Source: an uncultured Planctomycetales bacterium (lineage in GTDB: Bacteria; Omnitrophota; Gorgyraeia; Gygaellales; Profunditerraquicolaceae). Taken from it: DNA of 64,000 bases. The DNA is taken from assembly GCA_964603585.1 (NCBI GenBank), contig CAZRVK010000005.1, forward strand, positions 90,027-154,026, in the 5' to 3' direction. The number at the start of each line of letters is the position of its first letter. Position 1 is the stretch's first letter. This document shows, piece by piece, positions 19,258 to 59,030 of this stretch. Made by a program: the position numbers and the translations under genes. The notes beneath the pieces are model-generated. The model had not been told where the DNA came from. It made no database searches and saw nothing but the letters and a program-made list of their open reading frames with translations.

Positions 19258-20952
19258 ATGCTTCCTGATTTTAAGATCGCCCAAGCCGCAAAGAAACTGC
19301 CAATAGAGGATATTGCCCGCCAATTGGGGATAAACAAGAAGTACCTTTTCCCTTATGGCCGGTATATCGCAAAAATTGACCTGGATATCCTAAAAACCCT
19401 AAAAGGAAAAAAACGCGCTAAATATATCTTAGTTACTGCGATCACTCCTACACCTTTAGGTGAGGGTAAGACCGTTACTACCATAGGCCTTTCGATGAGC
19501 CTGAATCGCCTGGGTGAACTTACTTCGGCCTGTATCCGTCAGCCATCTTTAGGCCCGGTGTTTGGAATAAAAGGAAGCGCTGGAGGAGGCGGGTATTCAC
19601 AGGTTCTGCCCCGGGAAGATTTTGACCTGCATTTTACCGGTGATGCGCATGCCGTAGGACTGGCGCATAATTTAGCCGCGGCGTTCATAGACAATTCTAT
19701 CTTCCGCGGCAACCCCAAAAAGATCGCCGCTGATAAAATACATTGGAATCGGGTGGTGGATATCGGTGACCGCTCCTTAAGGCAGGTGAAGGTGGGTTTA
19801 GGGATTAAAAATGATCGTTTTTCCCGTCTTTCCGGTTTTGAGATCACCCCGGCATCCGAGATCATGGCAATACTGGCTTTAAGCAAGGATATCGGAGATT
19901 TAAGGAGGCGTTTGGGACGGATTGTCCTGGCAGAAAGCGTTGATTCCAAGCCGGTGACTGCGGAAGATTTAAAGGTCGCCGGTATCATGGCGGTGCTTTT
20001 AAAGGATGCGATCAAACCCAATTTGATACAGACTATAGAAAACACCCCGTGTTTTGTGCATACCGGCCCTTTTGCAAATATTGCCCATGGCAACAGTTCG
20101 ATAATTCAGGATGAGATCGCCATGGCTCTTTCTGATTATGTGGTTACCGAGTCGGGATTTGGGGCGGATTGCGGCGCGGAGAAATTCTTTGATATTAAGT
20201 CCCGGATAAGCGGGATCGTCCCTGATGCTGCGGTTTTAGTTTGTTCGATACGTTCATTGAAGGCACACAGCGGAAGGTTTAAGGTTATCCCAGGGAAACC
20301 TTTGGACCCTGGTTTGAAAAAAGAAAGTCTTTCTGCAGTAGAAGAAGGCTTAAGTAATTTAAAAAAACAGATTGAAAATGTAAGGATCTTTGGCGTGCCG
20401 GTCGTGGTAGCGGTTAACCGGTTTGAAACCGATACCCGCGCCGAGATTGACCTGGTCCGGCGGAAGGCTTTGGATTACGGCGCTTTTTCTACCGAAGTAA
20501 GCGAGGTTTGGCAGAAAGGCTCTTCTGGCGGCTTGTCATTGGCCAGAAGCGTGATTAAGGCCGCATCACTTGATAAAAGATATCGGTTGCTTTATTCCCA
20601 AGGAATTGGTATAAAAGAAAAGATAGAGTTAATTGCCAAGCGCCTTTATGGGGCGAGCCGGGTGGAGTATTCTGCTCTATCCCGGAATAAAATCAGGCTA
20701 TATACTTCCCGGGGATGGGATAAGCTTTTGATTTGTATGGCAAAAACCCCGCTTTCTTTATCCCATGACCCGGAATTAAAGGGGAGCCCGCAGGATTTTG
20801 TTTTGCCGGTAAGGGATATCCGGGCTTTCGTTGGCGCGGGATTCTTATCCTGCCTGTGTGGAGCGATCCAGACCATGCCGGGTCTTCCCAGCCATCCGCG
20901 GGGAGAAAATATCGATCTGGATAATTTCGGCCGTGTTATTGGCCTGTCTTAG
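19258..20952 (+). CDS. fhs: Formate-tetrahydrofolate ligase
   Basis: 'ITPTPLGEGKTVTTIGL' P-loop and full-length FTHFS similarity. I chose the ATG at 19258 (MLPDFKIAQ...). Confidence 0.95.
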   Translation: MLPDFKIAQAAKKLPIEDIARQLGINKKYLFPYGRYIAKIDLDILKTLKGKKRAKYILVTAITPTPLGEGKTVTTIGLSMSLNRLGELTSACIRQPSLGPVFGIKGSAGGGGYSQVLPREDFDLHFTGDAHAVGLAHNLAAAFIDNSIFRGNPKKIAADKIHWNRVVDIGDRSLRQVKVGLGIKNDRFSRLSGFEITPASEIMAILALSKDIGDLRRRLGRIVLAESVDSKPVTAEDLKVAGIMAVLLKDAIKPNLIQTIENTPCFVHTGPFANIAHGNSSIIQDEIAMALSDYVVTESGFGADCGAEKFFDIKSRISGIVPDAAVLVCSIRSLKAHSGRFKVIPGKPLDPGLKKESLSAVEEGLSNLKKQIENVRIFGVPVVVAVNRFETDTRAEIDLVRRKALDYGAFSTEVSEVWQKGSSGGLSLARSVIKAASLDKRYRLLYSQGIGIKEKIELIAKRLYGASRVEYSALSRNKIRLYTSRGWDKLLICMAKTPLSLSHDPELKGSPQDFVLPVRDIRAFVGAGFLSCLCGAIQTMPGLPSHPRGENIDLDNFGRVIGLS

Positions 20953-20963
20953 GAGAAAAAAAT

Positions 20964-21524
20964 ATGTACCGCAATCATACTTTATCAGAATACCTGGAAG
21001 ATCTTAGCGCAAGGCTTCCTGCTCCCGGAGGAGGATCGGCTGCGGCGGTGAATGCGGCGATGGGAGTGGCTTTGGTGAGCATGGTGGTTAATTTCACTAT
21101 CGGGAATGCAAAATATGCTAAATATGAAACTGACCTTAAAGATTTACTTGTGAGGTCAGAAAAGTTAAGGCTGGAATTCCTGAAGTTAGTGGATCTTGAC
21201 GTGGAGGCTTATAAAAGCCGGAATATCCGCGATTGCCTGAATGTCCCTTTTATGTTGGCCCGCCTGTGTTTAGAGGGTATGAAACTATGCCCGCCGCTTA
21301 TTAAAAAAGGCAATTTAAACCTGATCAGCGATGTGGCGGTCGCAGCGGTAATGTTAGAGGCGGCTTTTGCCAGCGCGTATTTTAATGTGGAAATAAATTT
21401 AAAGAGTTTAGGGGATGAGAAACTCGCCTCTGGTATAAGAAAAGAGCTGGATCAAAAACAGGCCCGGATAAAGAAGATAAGGCAACTAACGGAGGAAAAA
21501 GTTGGCAAAGTTATTAGAGGCTAA
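20964..21524 (+). CDS. fchA: Methenyl-THF cyclohydrolase / formiminotransferase-cyclodeaminase C-domain protein (FchA-like)
   Basis: 'LPAPGGGSAAAVNAAMGVALVSMV' FTCD_C-type motif. It sits between fhs and folD as in acetogen Wood-Ljungdahl clusters. Confidence 0.75.
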   Translation: MYRNHTLSEYLEDLSARLPAPGGGSAAAVNAAMGVALVSMVVNFTIGNAKYAKYETDLKDLLVRSEKLRLEFLKLVDLDVEAYKSRNIRDCLNVPFMLARLCLEGMKLCPPLIKKGNLNLISDVAVAAVMLEAAFASAYFNVEINLKSLGDEKLASGIRKELDQKQARIKKIRQLTEEKVGKVIRG

Positions 21525-22347
21525 TTCGATCGCCGCCCGGATTAAAGATAATATAATACAGGATATTTCCGTCTTGGGGTTTAAGCCGGTTTTAGCCAGT
21601 ATTGTGGTCGGCCAAAATCCCGGGGCATTGGCGTATGCCAGGTCTCAAGATAAATCGGCAGCCCAGTTGGGTATCGATTACAAGCTCTATAATTTAAAAG
21701 ATGACATTTCAGAAAAGTCATTATTTGAGATCATCCATAAACTCAATCGCGATAAATCGGTGAACGGGATAATGATCCAGATGCCGTTGCCGAAACAAAT
21801 AATCTGGAAGGATGTTATCGAAGAGATCCATCCTGAAAAAGACGTGGAGGGAATGCATCCGGAGAATATCGGCAGGGTTTTATTAAAGGATGCCCGGATT
21901 GTCCCCTGCACTGCGGCCAGTGTGATGGAGCTATTAGGCAGTACTGGGGTCAATTTAGAAGGCAAGGATGCGGTGGTCGTCGGCCACAGCGAGATCGTCG
22001 GCAAACCCTTAGCATTCTTATTGCTGGATAAATTAGCTACGGTTACGGTCGCGCATATCGGCACCAGTAAAGCCGGGAAATTAGAAGAACATCTTAAGCG
22101 CGCCGAGATCTTAGTTGTTGCGGTGGGCTGTCCGGGCTTGATTAAAGGCGATTCTATAAGGCCCGGTGCAATAGTCATTGATGTGGGGATTAACCGCCTT
22201 GATAATGGCAAGATCGTTGGGGATGTGGAATTCGATCCGGCACGAGAGCGCGCGTCCTATATCACTCCGGTCCCCGGAGGGGTTGGCCCATTGACGGTGA
22301 CAATGTTAATGCGCAACCTGGTAGAGGCCGCTAAATTACAGCGTTAA
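21502..22347 (+). CDS. folD: Bifunctional 5,10-methylene-THF dehydrogenase / 5,10-methenyl-THF cyclohydrolase
   Basis: FolD-family length (281 aa) and motifs: 'ASIVVGQNPGALAYARSQDK...', 'PCTAASVMELL', 'GHSEIVGKP'. Confidence 0.95.
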   Translation: MAKLLEANSIAARIKDNIIQDISVLGFKPVLASIVVGQNPGALAYARSQDKSAAQLGIDYKLYNLKDDISEKSLFEIIHKLNRDKSVNGIMIQMPLPKQIIWKDVIEEIHPEKDVEGMHPENIGRVLLKDARIVPCTAASVMELLGSTGVNLEGKDAVVVGHSEIVGKPLAFLLLDKLATVTVAHIGTSKAGKLEEHLKRAEILVVAVGCPGLIKGDSIRPGAIVIDVGINRLDNGKIVGDVEFDPARERASYITPVPGGVGPLTVTMLMRNLVEAAKLQR

Positions 22348-22356
22348 TGTAGCCCT

Positions 22357-22686
22357 ATGTTAACAATCCTGCTTTTGACCATATCTAATGTGTTTATGAC
22401 CTTTGCCTGGTATGGGCATTTGAAATACAAGCACTCTCCTTTATGGATCGTAATCCTTATCAGCTGGGGGATTGCCTTTGCCGAGTATTGTTTTCAGGTG
22501 CCGGCCAACCGCATCGGTTCTTACAAATATTCTGGCGCGCAGCTGAAAACGATCCAGGAAGTGATTACCCTGGTGGTTTTTACGGTGTTTTCCGTGCTTT
22601 ATCTCAAAGAGGAATTCAAATGGAACTATGCCGTAGGATTTGTTTTTATCCTGGCGGCGGTATTCTTTATTTTTAAAAAGTGGTGA
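22357..22686 (+). CDS. Small DMT-like membrane protein (DUF486-type, 3-4 TM)
   Basis: 109 aa, strongly hydrophobic. The architecture resembles the DUF486 half-DMT family. Confidence 0.45.
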   Translation: MLTILLLTISNVFMTFAWYGHLKYKHSPLWIVILISWGIAFAEYCFQVPANRIGSYKYSGAQLKTIQEVITLVVFTVFSVLYLKEEFKWNYAVGFVFILAAVFFIFKKW

Positions 22687-22700
22687 TGGGCGGATAATCC

Positions 22701-23570
22701 ATGACATTTAAAGAGAAAATACAATCGGACAAGTTTTTAGTGACCTCTGAAATCGATCCGCCAAAGGGGATCCAGAGCAAGCAGATATTGGACAATGCCC
22801 GCCTGCTTAGTTCCAGGGTAGATGCTTTTAATGTTACCGATCTGCAGAGTTCTTTGCTGCGGGTGGGGTCTTTGGCCTCGAGTATACTGCTTAAACAAAA
22901 TGGGTTTGAGCCTATCTATCAGCTTACTTGCCGCGACCGCAATCGCCTGGCTTTGCAATCGGATATTCTGTCTGCGGCGATGCTGGGTATTGAGAATATA
23001 CTGATTCTTACCGGTGACCATCCGGTTCAAGGCGATCATCCCGAAGCCAAGCCGGTATTCGACCTTGATTCTGTGCAGTTATTGCAGGTGGCAAATAAAC
23101 TTCAGCAAGGGCAGGATATGAAGGGATTCAAGCTGGTTGGTGTTCCTCCTAAGTTTTGCCTGGGGGCAGTGGTGAATCCAGGAGCAGATCCAATCGAGCC
23201 GCAGATCATCAGTATGGAGAAGAAGATCTCAAGCGGCGCGGAGTTTTTTCAGACGCAGGCGGTTTACGACCTTAAGGTGTTTGAGAATTTCTTAAAGAAA
23301 ACACGGCATCTCAAGACTAAAATTATTGCCGGAATCGTCTTGTTGAAATCCGCCGGGATGGCGCGGTATATGAATAAAAATGTCGCCGGGGTAAATGTCC
23401 CCGATGATTTGATCAGGGAGATGGAAGAAGCTTCGGATAAGGCAGCTCAATCCGTGGATATCGCATCACGGACGATACTTGAACTAAAATCAATGGCCGC
23501 CGGGGTGCATGTTATGCCGATTGGCTGGTATGAGATCGTTCCCAGGGTTTTGGACGCAAGCGGGTTATAA
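22701..23570 (+). CDS. metF: 5,10-methylenetetrahydrofolate reductase (acetogen-type small MetF)
   Basis: MetF TIM-barrel motifs 'LVTSEIDPPKG', 'AFNVTD', 'CRDRNR', 'LILTGDHP'. About 290 aa, the size of acetogen MetF. Confidence 0.85.
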   Translation: MTFKEKIQSDKFLVTSEIDPPKGIQSKQILDNARLLSSRVDAFNVTDLQSSLLRVGSLASSILLKQNGFEPIYQLTCRDRNRLALQSDILSAAMLGIENILILTGDHPVQGDHPEAKPVFDLDSVQLLQVANKLQQGQDMKGFKLVGVPPKFCLGAVVNPGADPIEPQIISMEKKISSGAEFFQTQAVYDLKVFENFLKKTRHLKTKIIAGIVLLKSAGMARYMNKNVAGVNVPDDLIREMEEASDKAAQSVDIASRTILELKSMAAGVHVMPIGWYEIVPRVLDASGL

Positions 23571-23586
23571 TTACAAACTTAAAACT

Positions 23587-24507
23587 ATGGCAAAAATAGT
23601 GGTTATTGGGAATTCGGCTGCCGGGTTTTCCGCCTGTCAGAGGCTTGTTGCACTGGGGCTAAAAGAGGTCACCGTGGTGACCAGGGAGAATACCATAGGT
23701 TATTACAAACCCAGGATTTTGGATTATTTATCTTCGGTTTCGACAGAGAAAGAGATATCAATATGTGCACAAGATTTTTATGCGCTCAATAACATAAATC
23801 TCCTGAAGAACAGCCAGGCCTGCCGGCTGGACACGAAAAAGCAGCGACTGATATTAAAAGACAATACAAAAATAAATTACGATTATTTGATCATTGCTTC
23901 AGGCGTAAGGCAGGAGTTAGGGGTTTTTACGGGTAAGAACAAGGAAGGGGTATTTGTTCTTAATGGTTTAGAAGATGCTATTGCCATTAAGAAACGCTTG
24001 CTTGTAACGAATACTATTTGCTTGATTGCAGAGTTGTCCTTAAGTTTGCGGCTTGCGCAGATATTTTTTGCTTTGGGAAAAGAGGTTAAACTGATCTCTG
24101 AATCCCCGGCTATACTTCCCGAACCATTATTATCGTCTGGAAAAGTTGAGTTGATTATGCAGGCTGCGGTGCAGGAGTTTATCGGCGACGGCGCGCAATT
24201 GCAGGCGGTAAAACTAAATAGCGGCAAGGTGATAGCTGCCGATATGGCGATTTTTGCAGGAGGATATACTCCCTGCACAGCTTTCTTAAAGGAAACCGAT
24301 GTTAAGATGGAGAACGGTTATATCCTGGTGGATGATGCGATGAGGAGTAATATTGATAACATCTTTGCCTGCGGGTCTGTTTGTAAAAAAACCTCCAGTA
24401 TGGATGAGCAAAAGAATTGGGAGCAGGCTTGGGAAGAAGGCTCTTTAGCTGCAGTGGAAGTAGCCCAATCAATTGAAAGGAGTAAGGCTGCATGTCAGAC
24501 GTTTTGA
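23587..24507 (+). CDS. FAD-dependent pyridine nucleotide-disulfide oxidoreductase-like protein (LpdA/Nox-like) with a degenerate second dinucleotide-binding motif
   Basis: N-terminal 'KIVVIGNSAAGFSA' FAD-binding fold. The expected NAD(P)H GxGxxG site reads 'ICLIAELSLSLRLA' instead. Sits between metF and acsB. Confidence 0.6.
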   Translation: MAKIVVIGNSAAGFSACQRLVALGLKEVTVVTRENTIGYYKPRILDYLSSVSTEKEISICAQDFYALNNINLLKNSQACRLDTKKQRLILKDNTKINYDYLIIASGVRQELGVFTGKNKEGVFVLNGLEDAIAIKKRLLVTNTICLIAELSLSLRLAQIFFALGKEVKLISESPAILPEPLLSSGKVELIMQAAVQEFIGDGAQLQAVKLNSGKVIAADMAIFAGGYTPCTAFLKETDVKMENGYILVDDAMRSNIDNIFACGSVCKKTSSMDEQKNWEQAWEEGSLAAVEVAQSIERSKAACQTF

Positions 24508-26675
24508 TCCAGTTGGGGGAAAAAGGCAATGAAGTGATTGGTTTGGCCGCCAGGACGTCTTTGGATGCGGCGATCAAATTCAAAGGCGCTCAACATAAAA
24601 TAGGATTTCCCCAGACAAATTATTATTTCCCTCTGGTTAATGCCTTATTGAAGATCGAAGTCAATACCCTGGGTGATTGTCTCCAGGTATTAAAAGAAGC
24701 GGAAAAATTGAATAATAACCAGGCCTGTTCCAGCGGATTGATCGAAAAAACCCTGGGCGGCATTCTTAATAAAGGGCTTGCGGTTCTATTTTGCGAAGAG
24801 GTATTGGCGGCTTTAGAGTATTTGAATCAAGGCCATCCCACAGAAGGATGTGCGGGGTTTTTATCGGATACTTTATTACGTTCATTGGGGATCCAGTTGG
24901 TTGATGGCCGGATAGCCGGGATCGCGGTTATCCTTGGTCCGGCTAAGGATGAAGATTCGGCGATGCAGTTGGTGCGGGATTTCCAGAAACGCAGTATTGT
25001 CAGCCTCCTGGCAGGCAATATCGGGGGGAACACTTTTAAAAAACAATTAGAGGCTAAATCGGTTGAACTGGGTCTGGAGAATTATATTGTGCCCTTAGGC
25101 AGTGATTATTTGTCCGTAATTTATGCTTTGAACTGGGCGGTGCGTGCGCCTTTGACTTATGGCGGATATAAGAGCGGGCAATGGCAGGAAATACTCAAAT
25201 ATACCAGGGATAAAGTCCCGGCATTTGTGGTGCTTTTAAGCCATGTCGATGAGACGATCGTTGCTACCGGCCTGGGGGCATTGGCGATGGGGTTTCCGAT
25301 TATCACCGATCTGGATCTGCCGCAGATAGGCAAGATCGATACTACTTCGTATGAAGCATTAGTGACACAAAAAGAATACAAGTCCCTGGCGGCACAATGC
25401 ATAGAGACCAGAGGCCTTAAGGTCAAAGTCGTTTCTGTCCCTGTCCCGGTGCCGTATGCCGCGGCATTCGAGGGTGAAAGGGTAAGGCGCGAACAATTAT
25501 ATGCCGAGTTCGGGGGCAAGGCCAGCACTGCATTTGAATTCCTGGTTACCAAAGGAATAAGCCAGGTCGAAGACGGCTTGGTAGAATTGTTTGGCCCGGA
25601 TATTGATGATCTTCCTCCGGGTGAAAGATCCATGCCTCTGGCAATCATCGTTGAAGTCGCCGGCAGAAAGATGCAAAAGGATTTTGAACCGATACTGGAA
25701 CGTCAGATCCATCGTTTTGTTAATTATGCCATGGGGTTAATGCATGTCGGGCAAAGGCAGATGAATTGGATCAGGATATCTCAAGATGCTTTTGCCAAGG
25801 GGTTCAGGTTAAAACATATCGGCGTGATACTGCATGCTATGCTGCATCAGGAATACAACGCTATTGTGGATAAAGTTCAAGTAAAGATCTTTACCCGGGA
25901 GGATGATGTAGGCAGGCTGTTACCGCAGGCGCTAAAGTCCTATGACGAGCGTGATGAACGATTAAGCGGAATGACCGATGAAAGTGTGGATACTTTTTAC
26001 TCCTGCCTGCTTTGCCAGTCTTTTGCCCCAAACCATATTTGCATGATCACTCCGGAACGCCTGGGTTTATGCGGGGCGTATTCCTGGCTGGATGGCAAGG
26101 CTTCCTATGAGATTATGCCAACTGGGCCGAATCAGCCGGTAGCTAAAGGCGAAGCGATAGATAAGAATCTTGGAGCGTGGAAGAATATCAACGATTTCTT
26201 TTACGAAAAGTCCAACAAAACCATCGAGCGTGTGAATATGTATTCTATGATGGATGCCCCGCAATCTTCCTGCGGGTGTTTTGAATGCATCGTGGCGATT
26301 ATACCGGAGGTGAATGGGGTGATGGTAGTGCACCGGGATTATCCCGGGATGACCCCCTGCGGGATGACGTTTACTACGTTGGCGGGTTCTGTAGGCGGGG
26401 GGGTGCAAACTCCGGGGTTTTTAGGTGTAGGCAAACTTTATATTGTCAGTAAGAAATTCATTTCCGCCGAAGGCGGACTAAAGAGAGTGGTTTGGATGCC
26501 TAAGGAATTGAAAGATGCCTTGGCGGATAAGCTGGATAAACGCGCCAAGGAGTTAAAAGAACCGGATCTGGTCAATAAGATAGCTGATGAAACGGTGGCG
26601 ACTACATCTGAAGAGCTTATCAGTTACTTGGAGAAGTTTGGTCATCCGGTCCTGGGAATGCCTCCGTTGTTTTAA
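24492..26675 (+). CDS. acsB: Acetyl-CoA synthase catalytic subunit (CODH/ACS alpha-type, AcsB/CdhC)
   Basis: Full-length similarity to AcsB, including A-cluster cysteine motifs 'DTFYSCLLCQSFAPNHICMITPERLGLCGA' and 'SSCGCFECIVAI'. Confidence 0.9.
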   Translation: MSDVLIQLGEKGNEVIGLAARTSLDAAIKFKGAQHKIGFPQTNYYFPLVNALLKIEVNTLGDCLQVLKEAEKLNNNQACSSGLIEKTLGGILNKGLAVLFCEEVLAALEYLNQGHPTEGCAGFLSDTLLRSLGIQLVDGRIAGIAVILGPAKDEDSAMQLVRDFQKRSIVSLLAGNIGGNTFKKQLEAKSVELGLENYIVPLGSDYLSVIYALNWAVRAPLTYGGYKSGQWQEILKYTRDKVPAFVVLLSHVDETIVATGLGALAMGFPIITDLDLPQIGKIDTTSYEALVTQKEYKSLAAQCIETRGLKVKVVSVPVPVPYAAAFEGERVRREQLYAEFGGKASTAFEFLVTKGISQVEDGLVELFGPDIDDLPPGERSMPLAIIVEVAGRKMQKDFEPILERQIHRFVNYAMGLMHVGQRQMNWIRISQDAFAKGFRLKHIGVILHAMLHQEYNAIVDKVQVKIFTREDDVGRLLPQALKSYDERDERLSGMTDESVDTFYSCLLCQSFAPNHICMITPERLGLCGAYSWLDGKASYEIMPTGPNQPVAKGEAIDKNLGAWKNINDFFYEKSNKTIERVNMYSMMDAPQSSCGCFECIVAIIPEVNGVMVVHRDYPGMTPCGMTFTTLAGSVGGGVQTPGFLGVGKLYIVSKKFISAEGGLKRVVWMPKELKDALADKLDKRAKELKEPDLVNKIADETVATTSEELISYLEKFGHPVLGMPPLF

Positions 26676-26694: not shown

Positions 26695-26722
26695 TTGACG
26701 TAATTTTATTTGTATGTATAAT
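26695..26722 (+). promoter_or_regulatory. Sigma70-like promoter: TTGACG, 16-bp spacer, TATAAT
   Basis: -35 TTGACG at 26695-26700 and -10 TATAAT at 26717-26722, in the AT-rich gap upstream of the TPR gene. Confidence 0.5.
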
Positions 26723-39652: not shown

Positions 39653-40270
39653 ATGGTTAAGGTTAAAATCTGCGGGATAACCAATCTTAAAGATGCCTTG
39701 GCTGCAGTAGGGGCCGGGTGCGATGCTTTGGGTTTTGTGTTTTATAAAAAAAGCCCCCGCTATATTACACCGGCGAAGGCGGCCGGCATAATCAGATGCC
39801 TGCCGGCAGGTATTATTAAGATCGGTGTTTTTGTCGATGCCTCCGAGAAAACAATTAAGAGGATCTCTACTGTTTGCCGCCTTGATCTATTGCAGTTCCA
39901 TGGGCATGAGACAGCTGGCTTCTGCAAAAAATTCAGGGGTTTAAAGATCATTAAGGCATTTCGCATAAGGAATAAAGAGGATTTAGCGTGTGTCTTGGAT
40001 TATAAGGTTTTTGCTTATCTTTTCGATGCTTTTTCAAGGTCAGGCTTTGGAGGAACAGGCAAAAAGTTCGACTGGAAGTTGTTGAGGCATCTGAAAAAAC
40101 CTACCCGCCCGGTCTTTCTTTCCGGAGGGCTTACTGCCCGTAACGTCGGAAAAGCGATAAGTTTACTGCATCCTGATTGGGTGGATGCCTGTACTTCCCT
40201 GGAGGCAACCCCCGGCAAGAAAAACCACAAAAAACTGAAAGCCTTCATTTCCCGGGCAAAAAACAATTAA
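39653..40270 (+). CDS. trpF: Phosphoribosylanthranilate isomerase
   Basis: 'KVKICGITNLKDALAAVGAGCDALGFVF' is the TrpF N-terminus. Confidence 0.85.
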   Translation: MVKVKICGITNLKDALAAVGAGCDALGFVFYKKSPRYITPAKAAGIIRCLPAGIIKIGVFVDASEKTIKRISTVCRLDLLQFHGHETAGFCKKFRGLKIIKAFRIRNKEDLACVLDYKVFAYLFDAFSRSGFGGTGKKFDWKLLRHLKKPTRPVFLSGGLTARNVGKAISLLHPDWVDACTSLEATPGKKNHKKLKAFISRAKNN

Positions 40271-40275
40271 GGTCT

Positions 40276-41799
40276 ATGCTGCCAAAAGGTTGGCTAAAGA
40301 AAAATTATTTATTAGTGGCCTTTATCCTGGCGCTGGTTTTCAGCGCATTCCTGCATTTTCGAGGCCTTGGCGGCGTAACCATCCTGGACGATGATGAATC
40401 CCGGGCCTTTGTCCTCCAAGGGAGCGGCCCGTTAATCTATTTTATCTGCCGTCCATTTTATCTTTTATCCGGGCGTGATCAAGCCAGCGCGTTCTATATC
40501 GCCGCACTCCTTGGTTTTATCAATATCATTTTGTTTTATCTTCTCTGCCGCAAGTTGTTCGATAAGGACCTTTCGAAACTGGCGGCCATAATCTATGCCT
40601 TGTATCCTGTGCGCATGAATTACGCGCGCACTTTATATCCGGCGGTATTCATAGAAAGCGCGTTCTTATTAGCCCTGCTTTTTCTATTTTCGGGCTTAAA
40701 CACGCGTAAATCATGGCAGGGATTTGTTTTTGGGGTATCTACTGTCGCTATTTTCTTCATGCATTATTCCGGTTACGCCCTGGTCATTGCTCTGATATTG
40801 GCAGTGATAGGATTAGGCATATGGCGTAAGTATTTTCGATTGAGCCGTGAGTTTATCCTGGGGCTGGTTGCTGGCTGTTTCATCCCTTTGGTGTTGATAA
40901 TCTGGTTTTGGCCGGGTAATGATTATTTACAGCAGGTTGTCCAATTTATGGGAAGGTATAAGAGTTATATGACGCATACCGGGACCCTTTTATATTTTAA
41001 CCGGGCGATCTTCCAGCAGATGTTTTCCTCCTGGCAGTATATCTTTATCAGCCTGGTTACTGCGGTTTCATGTTTATTTGTGTCAGTATATCCCCGGGCT
41101 AAAAGGAATAAAACCCTGGATTTGTTGCTGCTTATTTCATGTATTGCTTTGTTCATATTACAATTTGCGACTTTCTTAGGAAGGCATCCGCTTAACATAA
41201 GACACATAGTTTGGCTGGTTTCCCTCTACTCTGTGTGCATAGCACAGTGCATTTTCTTTTTATTATCCCGAAGGCGAGCCTTTGTGAAAATAACTGCAGG
41301 GGTGGTTCTTGTTTTATTCATTTGCGTTACGGCGCAGGAGAGTTATCAGATCACGGCTGAAACCTTTACTTTGACCCCGATCAAGGATTGGCTTAAGGGA
41401 AATAATATCCTCAAACGCCAGGTTATTACTTCATGGTGGATGCTTAACCGCGCTGGTGAGATAGACGGCGTATCACTTGTTCCAACCGCGTTCCAGGATA
41501 ACGGCGGCTCTTTTGAGTTTGGGATTCTCTGGCCGCTTGTATTTGAGGCATACCGCAAAGGCAGCTGTAAATATATCCTTACTTCGGGAATAAGCGGAAG
41601 GTTTTGCCTTGGAGAAGGGGATATAATGCTTAAATATGTTGATCCTGTTATGTCATGGCCGCATCCATATTCTAAATTCAAACGCCGGCCGTTTTATGAG
41701 CCAAAAGAGGTCAATATAAGTCTTTACCGCTTGGATGATGTTTTCTCGGAATGGAATATCAATACTATACAGTTTAACGCAAGAAGAGACCCGGGCTAA
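40276..41799 (+). CDS. GT-C fold membrane glycosyltransferase (PMT/ArnT, GT39/GT83-like), paralogue A
   Basis: Multi-TM N-domain with a first-loop acidic motif 'ILDDDESRAF' typical of GT-C enzymes. C-terminal soluble domain. Paralogous to 57486-59030. Confidence 0.6.
   Translation: MLPKGWLKKNYLLVAFILALVFSAFLHFRGLGGVTILDDDESRAFVLQGSGPLIYFICRPFYLLSGRDQASAFYIAALLGFINIILFYLLCRKLFDKDLSKLAAIIYALYPVRMNYARTLYPAVFIESAFLLALLFLFSGLNTRKSWQGFVFGVSTVAIFFMHYSGYALVIALILAVIGLGIWRKYFRLSREFILGLVAGCFIPLVLIIWFWPGNDYLQQVVQFMGRYKSYMTHTGTLLYFNRAIFQQMFSSWQYIFISLVTAVSCLFVSVYPRAKRNKTLDLLLLISCIALFILQFATFLGRHPLNIRHIVWLVSLYSVCIAQCIFFLLSRRRAFVKITAGVVLVLFICVTAQESYQITAETFTLTPIKDWLKGNNILKRQVITSWWMLNRAGEIDGVSLVPTAFQDNGGSFEFGILWPLVFEAYRKGSCKYILTSGISGRFCLGEGDIMLKYVDPVMSWPHPYSKFKRRPFYEPKEVNISLYRLDDVFSEWNINTIQFNARRDPG
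40474..40815. repeat. 342-bp tract 100% identical to 57684-58025 (copy 1), internal to GT-C paralogue A
   Basis: Base-by-base comparison: 342/342 identical. The flanking 5' 145 bp are about 92% identical and the 3' flank diverges to about 70%. Confidence 0.9.
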
Positions 41800-57485: not shown

Positions 57486-59030
57486 ATGTCCTTACTCCAT
57501 TGGTTAAATAAAAACCGGTTATCAATAATCCTGATATTTACGCTGGTTTTCAGCGCATTCCTGCATTTTCGGGATCTTGGCGGCGTAACCATCCTGGATG
57601 ATGATGAATCCCGTGCCTTTGTCCTTCAAGGGAGCGGGCCGTTACTCTATTTTATCTGCCGGCCATTCTATCTTTTATCGGGGCGTGATCAAGCCAGCGC
57701 GTTCTATATCGCCGCACTCCTTGGTTTTATCAATATCATTTTGTTTTATCTTCTCTGCCGCAAGTTGTTCGATAAGGACCTTTCGAAACTGGCGGCCATA
57801 ATCTATGCCTTGTATCCTGTGCGCATGAATTACGCGCGCACTTTATATCCGGCGGTATTCATAGAAAGCGCGTTCTTATTAGCCCTGCTTTTTCTATTTT
57901 CGGGCTTAAACACGCGTAAATCATGGCAGGGATTTGTTTTTGGGGTATCTACTGTCGCTATTTTCTTCATGCATTATTCCGGTTACGCCCTGGTCATTGC
58001 TCTGATATTGGCAGTGATAGGATTAAGCATCTTTACCCGGGATAAGATCAACAGGTTGTGTTGGTTCCAGTTTAACGTTCATTTTGTGCTGGGGGTGGTA
58101 TTAGGGTATTGCCTGTTCTGGTTCCTGTTATTCTGGCATTCTCCGGGGTATGATTATCTGGGACAGCTTTTTTGGTTTATGAAAAGAGAAGAAACGTACA
58201 TGGCACATATCCGTACCCCGGTATATTTTCACAGCGGGATATTCTACCAGATGTTCTCTTCTCTGCAATATATCCTGATAAGCTCGGTTACGGCGATCTC
58301 CTGTTTATACGTATTGGTTTATTCAATCATCATACGGAAGAAGCCGGTATTATTGTTCTTTTCCGTTTTTTGCATCGCCGCATCTCTTTTGGCGGTTGTC
58401 GCGTTTTTAGGACGGCATCCTTTAAAAATACGGCATTTAGTCTGGATGGTTTCTGTTTATGCCGTCTCTATTGCACAGTTAATTTCTTTTTTGTCTGCCC
58501 AAAGAAAGTGTATTGCAAATTTGGCAGCTAAAGTTATCCTTTGCGTATTTATCTCTGTTGCCGCTTACGAAAGTTACCAGATTACCGCCGAAACATTCAA
58601 TTTAACGCCTATTAAGAGCTGGCTTAAACAGAATAATATCCCCAAGAGCCAGATCATAACTTCATGGTGGATGCTTAACCGGGTGGATGACCCGGATGTA
58701 GCTTCATTTATCCCCACTGATTTTCGCAAAAACGCCGGTATCGGCGGCTCTTTCGGTTTTGTACTGATCTGGCCGTTTATTTTTGATGCATACCAGCAGG
58801 GCAGTTGTAAATACATCCTTACTTCAGGCATAAGCGGCAGGTGTTATATCGGTTATGACGATATAATGCTTAAACACGTAAAACCGGTTATGTCATGGCT
58901 GCATCCGTATTTTAAGTTCAAGCGCCGGCCTTTTTGCCGTCCGGTACCGCTTTATATCAATCTTTACCGGTTGGATGATGTTTTTTCGTCTTCTAATCTG
59001 GGGTCTCTAAAATCACGCGGTGAGGAGTGA
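57486..59030 (+). CDS. GT-C fold membrane glycosyltransferase (PMT/ArnT-like), paralogue B
   Basis: Same architecture as 40276-41799. Contains the 342-bp identical tract, and the C-terminal domain is conserved at protein level ('ESYQITAETF.LTPIK...GSCKYILTSGISGR'). Confidence 0.6.
   Translation: MSLLHWLNKNRLSIILIFTLVFSAFLHFRDLGGVTILDDDESRAFVLQGSGPLLYFICRPFYLLSGRDQASAFYIAALLGFINIILFYLLCRKLFDKDLSKLAAIIYALYPVRMNYARTLYPAVFIESAFLLALLFLFSGLNTRKSWQGFVFGVSTVAIFFMHYSGYALVIALILAVIGLSIFTRDKINRLCWFQFNVHFVLGVVLGYCLFWFLLFWHSPGYDYLGQLFWFMKREETYMAHIRTPVYFHSGIFYQMFSSLQYILISSVTAISCLYVLVYSIIIRKKPVLLFFSVFCIAASLLAVVAFLGRHPLKIRHLVWMVSVYAVSIAQLISFLSAQRKCIANLAAKVILCVFISVAAYESYQITAETFNLTPIKSWLKQNNIPKSQIITSWWMLNRVDDPDVASFIPTDFRKNAGIGGSFGFVLIWPFIFDAYQQGSCKYILTSGISGRCYIGYDDIMLKHVKPVMSWLHPYFKFKRRPFCRPVPLYINLYRLDDVFSSSNLGSLKSRGEE
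57684..58025. repeat. 342-bp tract 100% identical to 40474-40815 (copy 2)
   Basis: Direct comparison, 342/342. Confidence 0.9.

Follow-up and report, generated by a model that had tools for sequence, protein, structure and literature searches.

The flavoproteins encoded beside genes of the Wood-Ljungdahl (WL) pathway are known from several settings. In clostridial WL clusters LpdA is encoded next to metVF, where its function is unresolved, and methylene-tetrahydrofolate (THF) reductases have been divided into MetVF (type II), RnfC2-MetVF (type III) and Hdr-MetVF (type IV) (PMC8760232). In the CooS-CooF-FNOR unit (Whitham 2015 and Geelhoed 2016, cited in Inoue 2019, PMC6344411; PMC4703632), a nickel carbon monoxide dehydrogenase (Ni-CODH) and the CooF ferredoxin are accompanied by a COG1251 FAD-dependent NAD(P) oxidoreductase (FNOR). 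In Omnitrophota the WL pathway is partial or dispersed, AcsB-E being present and AcsA/CooS absent in 24 species (Seymour et al. 2023, PMC10066038); a stand-alone acsB is therefore already described for this phylum and is not new. Here we describe a compact block of one-carbon genes, fhs-fchA-folD-DUF486-metF-flavoprotein-acsB, at positions 19258-26675 of a 64,000-nucleotide stretch of contig CAZRVK010000005.1 (the window), in which the names of homologues point to Candidatus Omnitrophota. We read it as a reduced Omnitrophota one-carbon/acetyl-CoA synthase (ACS) cluster in which the flavoprotein is the remnant of an FNOR, now most likely an ACS-associated accessory subunit and not the electron donor of MetF, and we put the probability of this reading at roughly 0.7.

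Gene calls were made from a listing of open reading frames (ORFs) together with Pfam and NCBIfam scans, and they upheld all the calls of an earlier sequence-only reading, including the gene order of the block and its resemblance to clostridial WL clusters. About 100 related Omnitrophota loci were compared, of which 68 were classified. A first scan, in which genomes were searched with the alignment of the flavoprotein family, gave 24 Omnitrophota loci (scan 1), and a second, ascertained on MetF and not on the flavoprotein, gave 80 metagenome loci. Because the order rnhB-yraN-(fhs)-fchA-folD, a slot, metF and, further downstream, TPR-polA recurs in the 24 genome loci and in dozens of metagenome loci, the arrangement is not due to chance. 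All scan-1 loci share rnhB-yraN-(fhs)-fchA-folD, a variable slot, and metF-flavoprotein-(acsB)-TPR-polA; fhs is missing between yraN and fchA in seven related loci and acsB from several. The classified loci include 22 with a short flavoprotein followed by acsB, four with a full flavoprotein-AcsB fusion, six with a domain fusion, ten with cooS-cooF-FNOR, six with a short flavoprotein and no acsB, and five in which a plain acsB directly follows metF. Unlike the genes of the bacterial CODH/ACS complex, acsB has no AcsA/CooS, AcsC, AcsD or AcsE gene beside it in the window or in the acsB flanks of scan 1, and it is followed by a TPR gene and polA, as the sequence-only reading had stated for the window. 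In this the locus is like the Omnitrophota of Seymour et al., in whose genomes the other WL genes lie elsewhere.

The tie between flavoprotein and AcsB is conserved. The window acsB (24492-26675, plus strand) encodes a full-length bacterial acetyl-CoA synthase in the plain 727-aa form, scoring 978 bits against NF040764 (cutoff 800) and, in a comparison with the ACS of C. autoethanogenum (6ytt_A), 700 bits, its Cys-x2-Cys...Cys and Cys-Gly-Cys motifs being aligned with those of that enzyme; 1oao could also be aligned, and both the three-domain ACS architecture and the A-cluster ligands are present. It is likewise a full-length homologue of the monomeric ACS of Carboxydothermus hydrogenoformans (1ru3), an ACS that can exist without CODH. 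In the window the flavoprotein stop and the acsB start overlap by 16 nt (24492-24507, plus strand), which may reflect translational coupling, and the same overlap or abutment is found between flavoprotein and acsB in relatives and in the long FNOR-acsB pairs of loci L039 and L040. Elsewhere the two proteins are one. Single ORFs of 1027-1029 aa encode the whole flavoprotein joined to AcsB in L004, L005, L008 and L012, while in L036, L044, L052, L059, L061 and L062 only the central domain is present, as an N-terminal extension of AcsB of 110-140 aa. When we placed this extension on the hidden Markov model (HMM) of the flavoprotein family, it matched positions 111-229 only, that is, the inserted ex-NAD domain, and an hhalign comparison of the extensions with the family gave a probability of 99.8 (E 2e-29) over residues 109-230 of the window protein (23911-24276, plus strand). 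A Pfam scan of the extension returned nothing, even at E<=1. In six of six loci the reading frame of the extension is open and continuous with that of AcsB, with ratios of nonsynonymous to synonymous polymorphism (pN/pS) of 0.23-0.42 and synonymous divergence (dS) mostly above 1, indicating that it is translated and constrained by purifying selection. Among the 120 best Omnitrophota AcsB clusters, a ranking that favours fused forms, we counted 9 full fusions, 88 central-domain fusions and 23 plain proteins; the central-domain fusions measure ~840-870 aa, with the same length from independent annotators, and the plain forms 726-728 aa. The flavoprotein family has been fused repeatedly to AcsB, and a fusion to MetF was never seen. 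We found no description in the literature of an FNOR coupled or fused to AcsB, and neither the FNOR-derived partner nor the N-terminal extension is mentioned by Seymour et al. (2023).

Two other peculiarities of Omnitrophota AcsB were observed. Some of these proteins (L044 6980-11164, P0294, P0320 and P0322) contain an insertion of ~540 aa between residues ~509 and ~507 with intein-splicing and LAGLIDADG homing-endonuclease domains (PF14890, PF14528), an intein inside acetyl-CoA synthase. In L010 (10910-12163) AcsB is cut to 417 aa, its N-terminal domain is absent and the nickel site reads Cys-Gly-Thr for Cys-Gly-Cys; this is probably a decaying or non-catalytic copy.

The ancestry of the flavoprotein can be read from the same genomic position in sister Omnitrophota. 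In L037-L040, L045, L046, L051 and L057, whose MetF is 71-78% identical to that of the window, the order is metF-cooS-cooF-FNOR-acsB, with an FNOR of 420-427 aa. The CooS encoded between metF and acsB is a Ni-CODH (TIGR01702, 678 bits) and is followed by a CooF-type polyferredoxin; Pyr_redox_2, Pyr_redox and Rubredoxin_C domains are recognised in the FNOR, whose GGGLIG is intact and whose stop overlaps the acsB start just as that of the 306-aa window protein does. The known CooS-CooF-FNOR unit is in this way present intact directly upstream of acsB, and across the sister loci of the range L037-L060 FNOR genes are accompanied by cooS and cooF. When we compared the window flavoprotein with the 421-aa FNOR of L039, we found 32% identity over 309 aa (E 2e-43), and PadH was the best NCBIfam match for both. 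Long FNORs score 244-254 bits on the HMM of the short family, against ~127 bits for the best PDB chain, and short and long forms share the motifs IIGNSAAG and EVKVI.S, the outgroups having VTVVE at the latter. The window protein is thus like the CODH-associated FNOR in family, fold, PadH match and the GNSAAG FAD motif, and unlike it in having no NAD(P) motif, no GD aspartate, no cooS or cooF alongside and, within its 306 aa, no C-terminal Rubredoxin_C domain (PF18267), which the L039 FNOR possesses. Its median identity between the related loci and the window is 40%, compared with 71% for both MetF and AcsB, so that no gene of the block evolves faster. These comparisons show that the flavoprotein derives, by truncation and rapid evolution, from a CODH-associated, FNOR-like ancestor that stood at the same position. 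A 289-aa short flavoprotein in L069 (6795-7730), basal in the neighbour-joining (NJ) tree, keeps both GD and GxGxxA and probably represents a stage on the way from the intact FNOR to the degenerate family. A search of the six-frame ORFs of the whole 64-kb window at E<=1e-3 found neither a homologue of CooS, CooF or MetV nor a further flavoprotein. In the window's lineage neither cooS nor cooF stands between metF and the remnant, and this alone is why the remnant abuts metF.

Between cooF and FNOR in L037 and L038 (9600-11500) lie ORFs for a RelE/ParE-like toxin and a pilin-like protein, as well as a fragment that duplicates the N-terminus of the FNOR, insertions that mark the interval as prone to rearrangement.

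The flavoprotein itself lies at 23587-24507 (plus strand; PF07992, 129 bits). Its ORF opens at 23509, and since every aligned homologue begins at MAKIV, which is at 23587 in the window, we take its length as 306 aa. A protein search returned ~90 clusters of ~305-aa relatives, almost all from Omnitrophota. The sequence-only reading had noted a degenerate second GxGxxG, the NAD(P)H motif, and re-alignment confirmed this as a family-wide trait: AELSLS (residues 148-153; 24028-24045, plus strand) aligns with the GxGxxG of canonical relatives, and nearly all short-family members are degenerate here, the usual remnant being VC(I/V)xG(E/S). Across the 43 family members aligned, the motif loss extends to the acidic residue that ends beta2, which is replaced (EVKxIS), to 11 residues deleted after beta2, and to the Asp of the GD motif, which has become Ser, Ala or Thr (FACGSVC); canonical outgroups retain GxGxxG, the acidic residue, the post-beta2 residues and the GD Asp. 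An AlphaFold2 (AF2) model of the protein has a pLDDT of 94.9 and a pTM of 0.90, and Foldseek matched it with putidaredoxin/ferredoxin reductases, CoA-disulfide reductases and AorC at TM scores of 0.81-0.86 relative to the query. The two-domain Pyr_redox_2 fold with an N-terminal FAD motif is therefore present according to both PF07992 and the model. By sequence, the best PDB match is 3klj (NirB-family/NROR; E 7e-36). The protein shares the two-Rossmann-domain fold of NADH:rubredoxin oxidoreductase and the ferredoxin reductases (3klj, 1xhc, putidaredoxin reductase 1q1r/3lb8 and the AorC chain 8c0z_E), and differs from them in being ~100 residues shorter, in lacking a C-terminal partner-binding/dimerisation domain and in its degenerate NAD site. 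In NJ bootstrapping the short family came out as monophyletic in 97 of 100 replicates, and the long FNORs did so in all 100.

The sequence-only reading had called this protein LpdA/Nox-like, and the LpdA part of that label fails. On TIGR01350, whose cutoff is 408.8 bits, it reaches 49.8 bits with a match to residues 110-296 only, and the protein has neither the redox-active CxxxxC nor a dimerisation domain (no PF02852). As with clostridial LpdA, a flavoprotein of the same superfamily directly follows metF; unlike LpdA, that of the window is of FNOR origin. An iron-sulfur site was likewise rejected, there being no universally conserved set of four cysteines.

We propose a reductive series that would run from the intact cooS-cooF-FNOR-acsB module to a truncated separate protein, a whole-protein fusion and finally a single-domain fusion. 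In a first step cooS-cooF would be lost, and with it the FNOR would lose its NAD(P)H-linked redox job; the truncated FNOR would then be kept through its association with AcsB, and in most lineages only the ex-NAD domain would still be needed, as the N-terminal extension of AcsB. Such a remnant would not oxidise NAD(P)H and would not pass electrons to MetF; it may stabilise AcsB or dock on it where CODH is missing, and could possibly still hold FAD. The architecture classes are interspersed in the MetF tree, which is poorly resolved, a pattern that fits repeated independent reductions or losses but does not prove them. In favour of the link to AcsB, L023 keeps flavoprotein and acsB and has no metF. 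A bolder version of this idea, which we offer tentatively and hold to be on the doubtful side, is that the FNOR-derived protein, or its ex-NAD domain, is an unrecognised dedicated partner domain of ACS that took over a role otherwise filled by CODH, with ACS at work in ultra-small bacteria devoid of CODH. Such a partner may stabilise the N-terminal domain of ACS, cap or gate its CO tunnel, or deliver an activating electron.

Several observations weigh against the FNOR-remnant reading. Six loci (L003, L015, L016, L017, L019 and L020) keep the short flavoprotein beside metF where acsB is absent, and a role confined to AcsB does not cover these cases. Synteny is generally kept in this phylum even between unrelated genes, which weakens the argument from adjacency. 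An AF2 model of a natural fusion (P0223) reached a pTM of only 0.50, with pLDDT below 50 at the junction, and provided no structural evidence of docking. The sister relation of short and long forms, set against five outgroups, was recovered in only 38 of 100 NJ bootstraps, so that an FNOR origin is argued from position, from shared motifs and from HMM scores. The absence of cooS/cooF and of metV is a statement about the 64-kb window and not about the whole genome. Finally, the N-terminal FAD motif is strongly conserved (G8, S10, G13 and E34), which makes a redox role possible.

This last point is where an alternative begins, namely that the protein is a redox-active FAD protein that takes electrons from a donor other than a pyridine nucleotide, for example ferredoxin, and serves ACS in lineages without CODH, for instance by activating the A-cluster or the corrinoid protein through reduction. 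The conserved FAD-binding motif with E34, the tight coupling to acsB, and the conserved cysteines C145 (39 of 43 members), C262 (41 of 43) and C266 (31 of 43) together with the C-terminal CQQTS would all suit such a protein. Nevertheless we regard it as unlikely, given that the commonest form of AcsB carries the ex-NAD domain only and no FAD domain, that the GD aspartate is lost, and that the full fusions have no C-terminal cysteine tail. The tail itself, of the form ...ERGKxxCQQTS with a single cysteine (window residues 299-306), occurs in 27 of 43 family members and is absent from a divergent subclade and from the AcsB fusions.

The rapid evolution of the flavoprotein and the loss of its NAD motif, GD aspartate and C-terminal domain could also be expected of a functionless relic that, after the loss of cooS-cooF, is heading for deletion, and a frameshifted copy in L024 and the complete absence of the flavoprotein from class F loci point the same way. 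Against this, more than 30 divergent lineages have an intact ORF, the short family is monophyletic with invariant FAD-motif residues, the AF2 model is very confident, and 88 protein clusters carry the central domain in frame at the head of AcsB, under the constraint described above. A relic therefore seems to us quite unlikely.

MetF poses a separate question. The window metF (22701-23570, plus strand) encodes a small, full-length methylene-THF reductase (PF02219, 111 bits) with the C-terminal half of YitJ as its best NCBIfam match (236 bits) and a distant similarity to solved methylene-THF reductases (E ~1e-6). It is 71-80% identical across Omnitrophota, and the MetFs of other lineages, at 54-62% identity, are almost always preceded by MetV (PF12225). 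The slot between folD and metF, which the sequence-only reading had taken as the usual place of metV, is occupied by MetV (PF12225) in L074, a deeper relative with Omnitrophota-like synteny. The window MetF falls in a clade with members that have MetV beside them (L074, L087 and L111), in which it is like the MetVF reductases of types II-IV; unlike them, it has no MetV encoded next to it in the window, and the same holds for all the crown Omnitrophota loci that we examined. These relationships indicate that the window MetF comes from a MetV-associated clade whose adjacent MetV was apparently lost in the crown lineage. In other lineages the MetV-based input modules are diverse. Clusters of a NiFe-hydrogenase large subunit, a maturation protease, MetV and MetF were seen in L087, L088, L093, L096, L103 and L105, and in L111 MetF stands behind an RnfC2-like MetV-RnfC fusion plus MetV (RnfC2-MetV-MetF).

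In the 24 scan-1 loci the slot never holds MetV; it is empty or occupied by DUF486, TPR lipoproteins, GGDEF/HD-GYP proteins, an RlmD-like methyltransferase or membrane proteins. In the window it holds a 109-aa small membrane protein of the DUF486/DMT_6 family (22357-22686, plus strand), which matches PF04342 over model positions 1-104 of 104 with 166.8 bits and has four hydrophobic segments as read from its sequence, in agreement with the sequence-only reading. DUF486 was found in 12 of the 68 classified loci, each time directly behind folD, and in L016, L017, L018, L024, L048 and L053 unrelated genes lie between it and metF. It occurs with every downstream architecture, whatever the class of flavoprotein, and among these loci we found no conserved co-occurrence or adjacency with metF. 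We consider DUF486 to be, as far as these loci indicate, an optional passenger gene behind folD. As a substitute for MetV it is ruled out by the same comparison, being infrequent, bound to folD and at a variable distance from metF. Our literature search on DUF486 returned only papers on DUF4861 and DUF4867.

That DUF486 and the flavoprotein without an NAD site together replace MetV as a new, membrane-linked module for bringing electrons to the small MetF, as the sequence-only reading had suggested, is very improbable, for although metF and the flavoprotein are adjacent in 23 of the 24 flavoprotein-ascertained loci (gaps of 1-24 nt), stay paired in the six loci without acsB, and belong to crown loci that all lack MetV in an otherwise MetV-associated MetF clade, the short flavoprotein lies downstream of metF in only about one third of the MetF-ascertained loci (the others having cooS, fused AcsB or plain AcsB there), no fusion of MetF was found among the 120 best MetF clusters (277-331 aa), the FAD domain is deleted in most lineages while MetF stays, and DUF486, a member of a DMT-type half-transporter family, is tied to folD, often apart from metF and found whatever the flavoprotein class. 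In the syntenic loci that we compared the arrangement is recurrent, and the presence of cooS-cooF-FNOR at the same position in sister lineages speaks against the MetF module. Among the classified loci, those of classes C, D and F have MetF and no flavoprotein, and many lineages have it with no MetV and no FAD domain in the vicinity; for this reason the flavoprotein cannot be a general donor to MetF. Judged by gene neighbourhoods, neither DUF486 nor the flavoprotein is a credible electron donor for MetF, which may instead be served by a MetV encoded elsewhere in the genome, by a direct donor or by something else.

The remaining genes of the block, all on the plus strand, are fhs (formate-tetrahydrofolate ligase, 19258-20952; PF01268 774 bits, NF010030 733 bits), an fchA-like methenyl-THF cyclohydrolase of the FTCD_C family (20964-21524; PF04961 161 bits, and NF045657 147 bits, under its cutoff of 275), and folD (bifunctional methylene-THF dehydrogenase/cyclohydrolase, 21502-22347; PF02882, PF00763), which overlaps the fchA stop. 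Spacing between the genes of the block ranges from -23 to +16 nt. The 67-nt spacer between acsB and the TPR gene contains a near-consensus sigma-70-like site, TTGACG-16-TATAAT (11 of 12 positions; 26695-26722), the single strong promoter-like match of the region in a promoter and terminator scan whose counts were otherwise at chance level; this suggests that the WL block ends at acsB and that the TPR gene has its own promoter. Reading through the ORF translations of the window, we found no acsCDE, hdr or rnf. The remainder of the 64 kb is housekeeping in content, with dxr, ispG, nusA, infB, ruvB, tgt, trmD, rho, prfA, murA, trpGDCF and glycosyltransferases. Over the whole window (1-64000) almost all genes are on the plus strand, spacers are tiny and the GC skew is positive throughout, and in such a streamlined genome adjacency by itself is weak evidence of functional linkage. 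Two stretches, 40331-40820 and 57541-58030, are 97.6% identical across 490 nt; they are the 5′ parts of paralogous genes for large membrane proteins (ORFs 40177-41799 and 57486-59030) that flank a glycosyltransferase/radical-SAM region, and their identity points to a recent duplication or to gene conversion.

For the long-standing question of the MetF electron donor, these comparisons remove a lead that was tempting but wrong. They also sharpen the question, as a MetF from a MetV-dependent clade is found without an adjacent MetV over a whole phylum-level lineage. The reductive series also comes to light here, by which an NAD(P)H oxidoreductase would have become an ACS appendage that is either non-catalytic or re-purposed. 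If the appendage is indeed a dedicated partner of ACS, the enzyme could use external CO or run acetyl-CoA cleavage in ultra-small bacteria that lack CODH. The appendage is unannotated, yet it is found on most Omnitrophota AcsB proteins, and it could bear on the reading of partial Wood-Ljungdahl pathways in these bacteria, which are abundant and uncultured.

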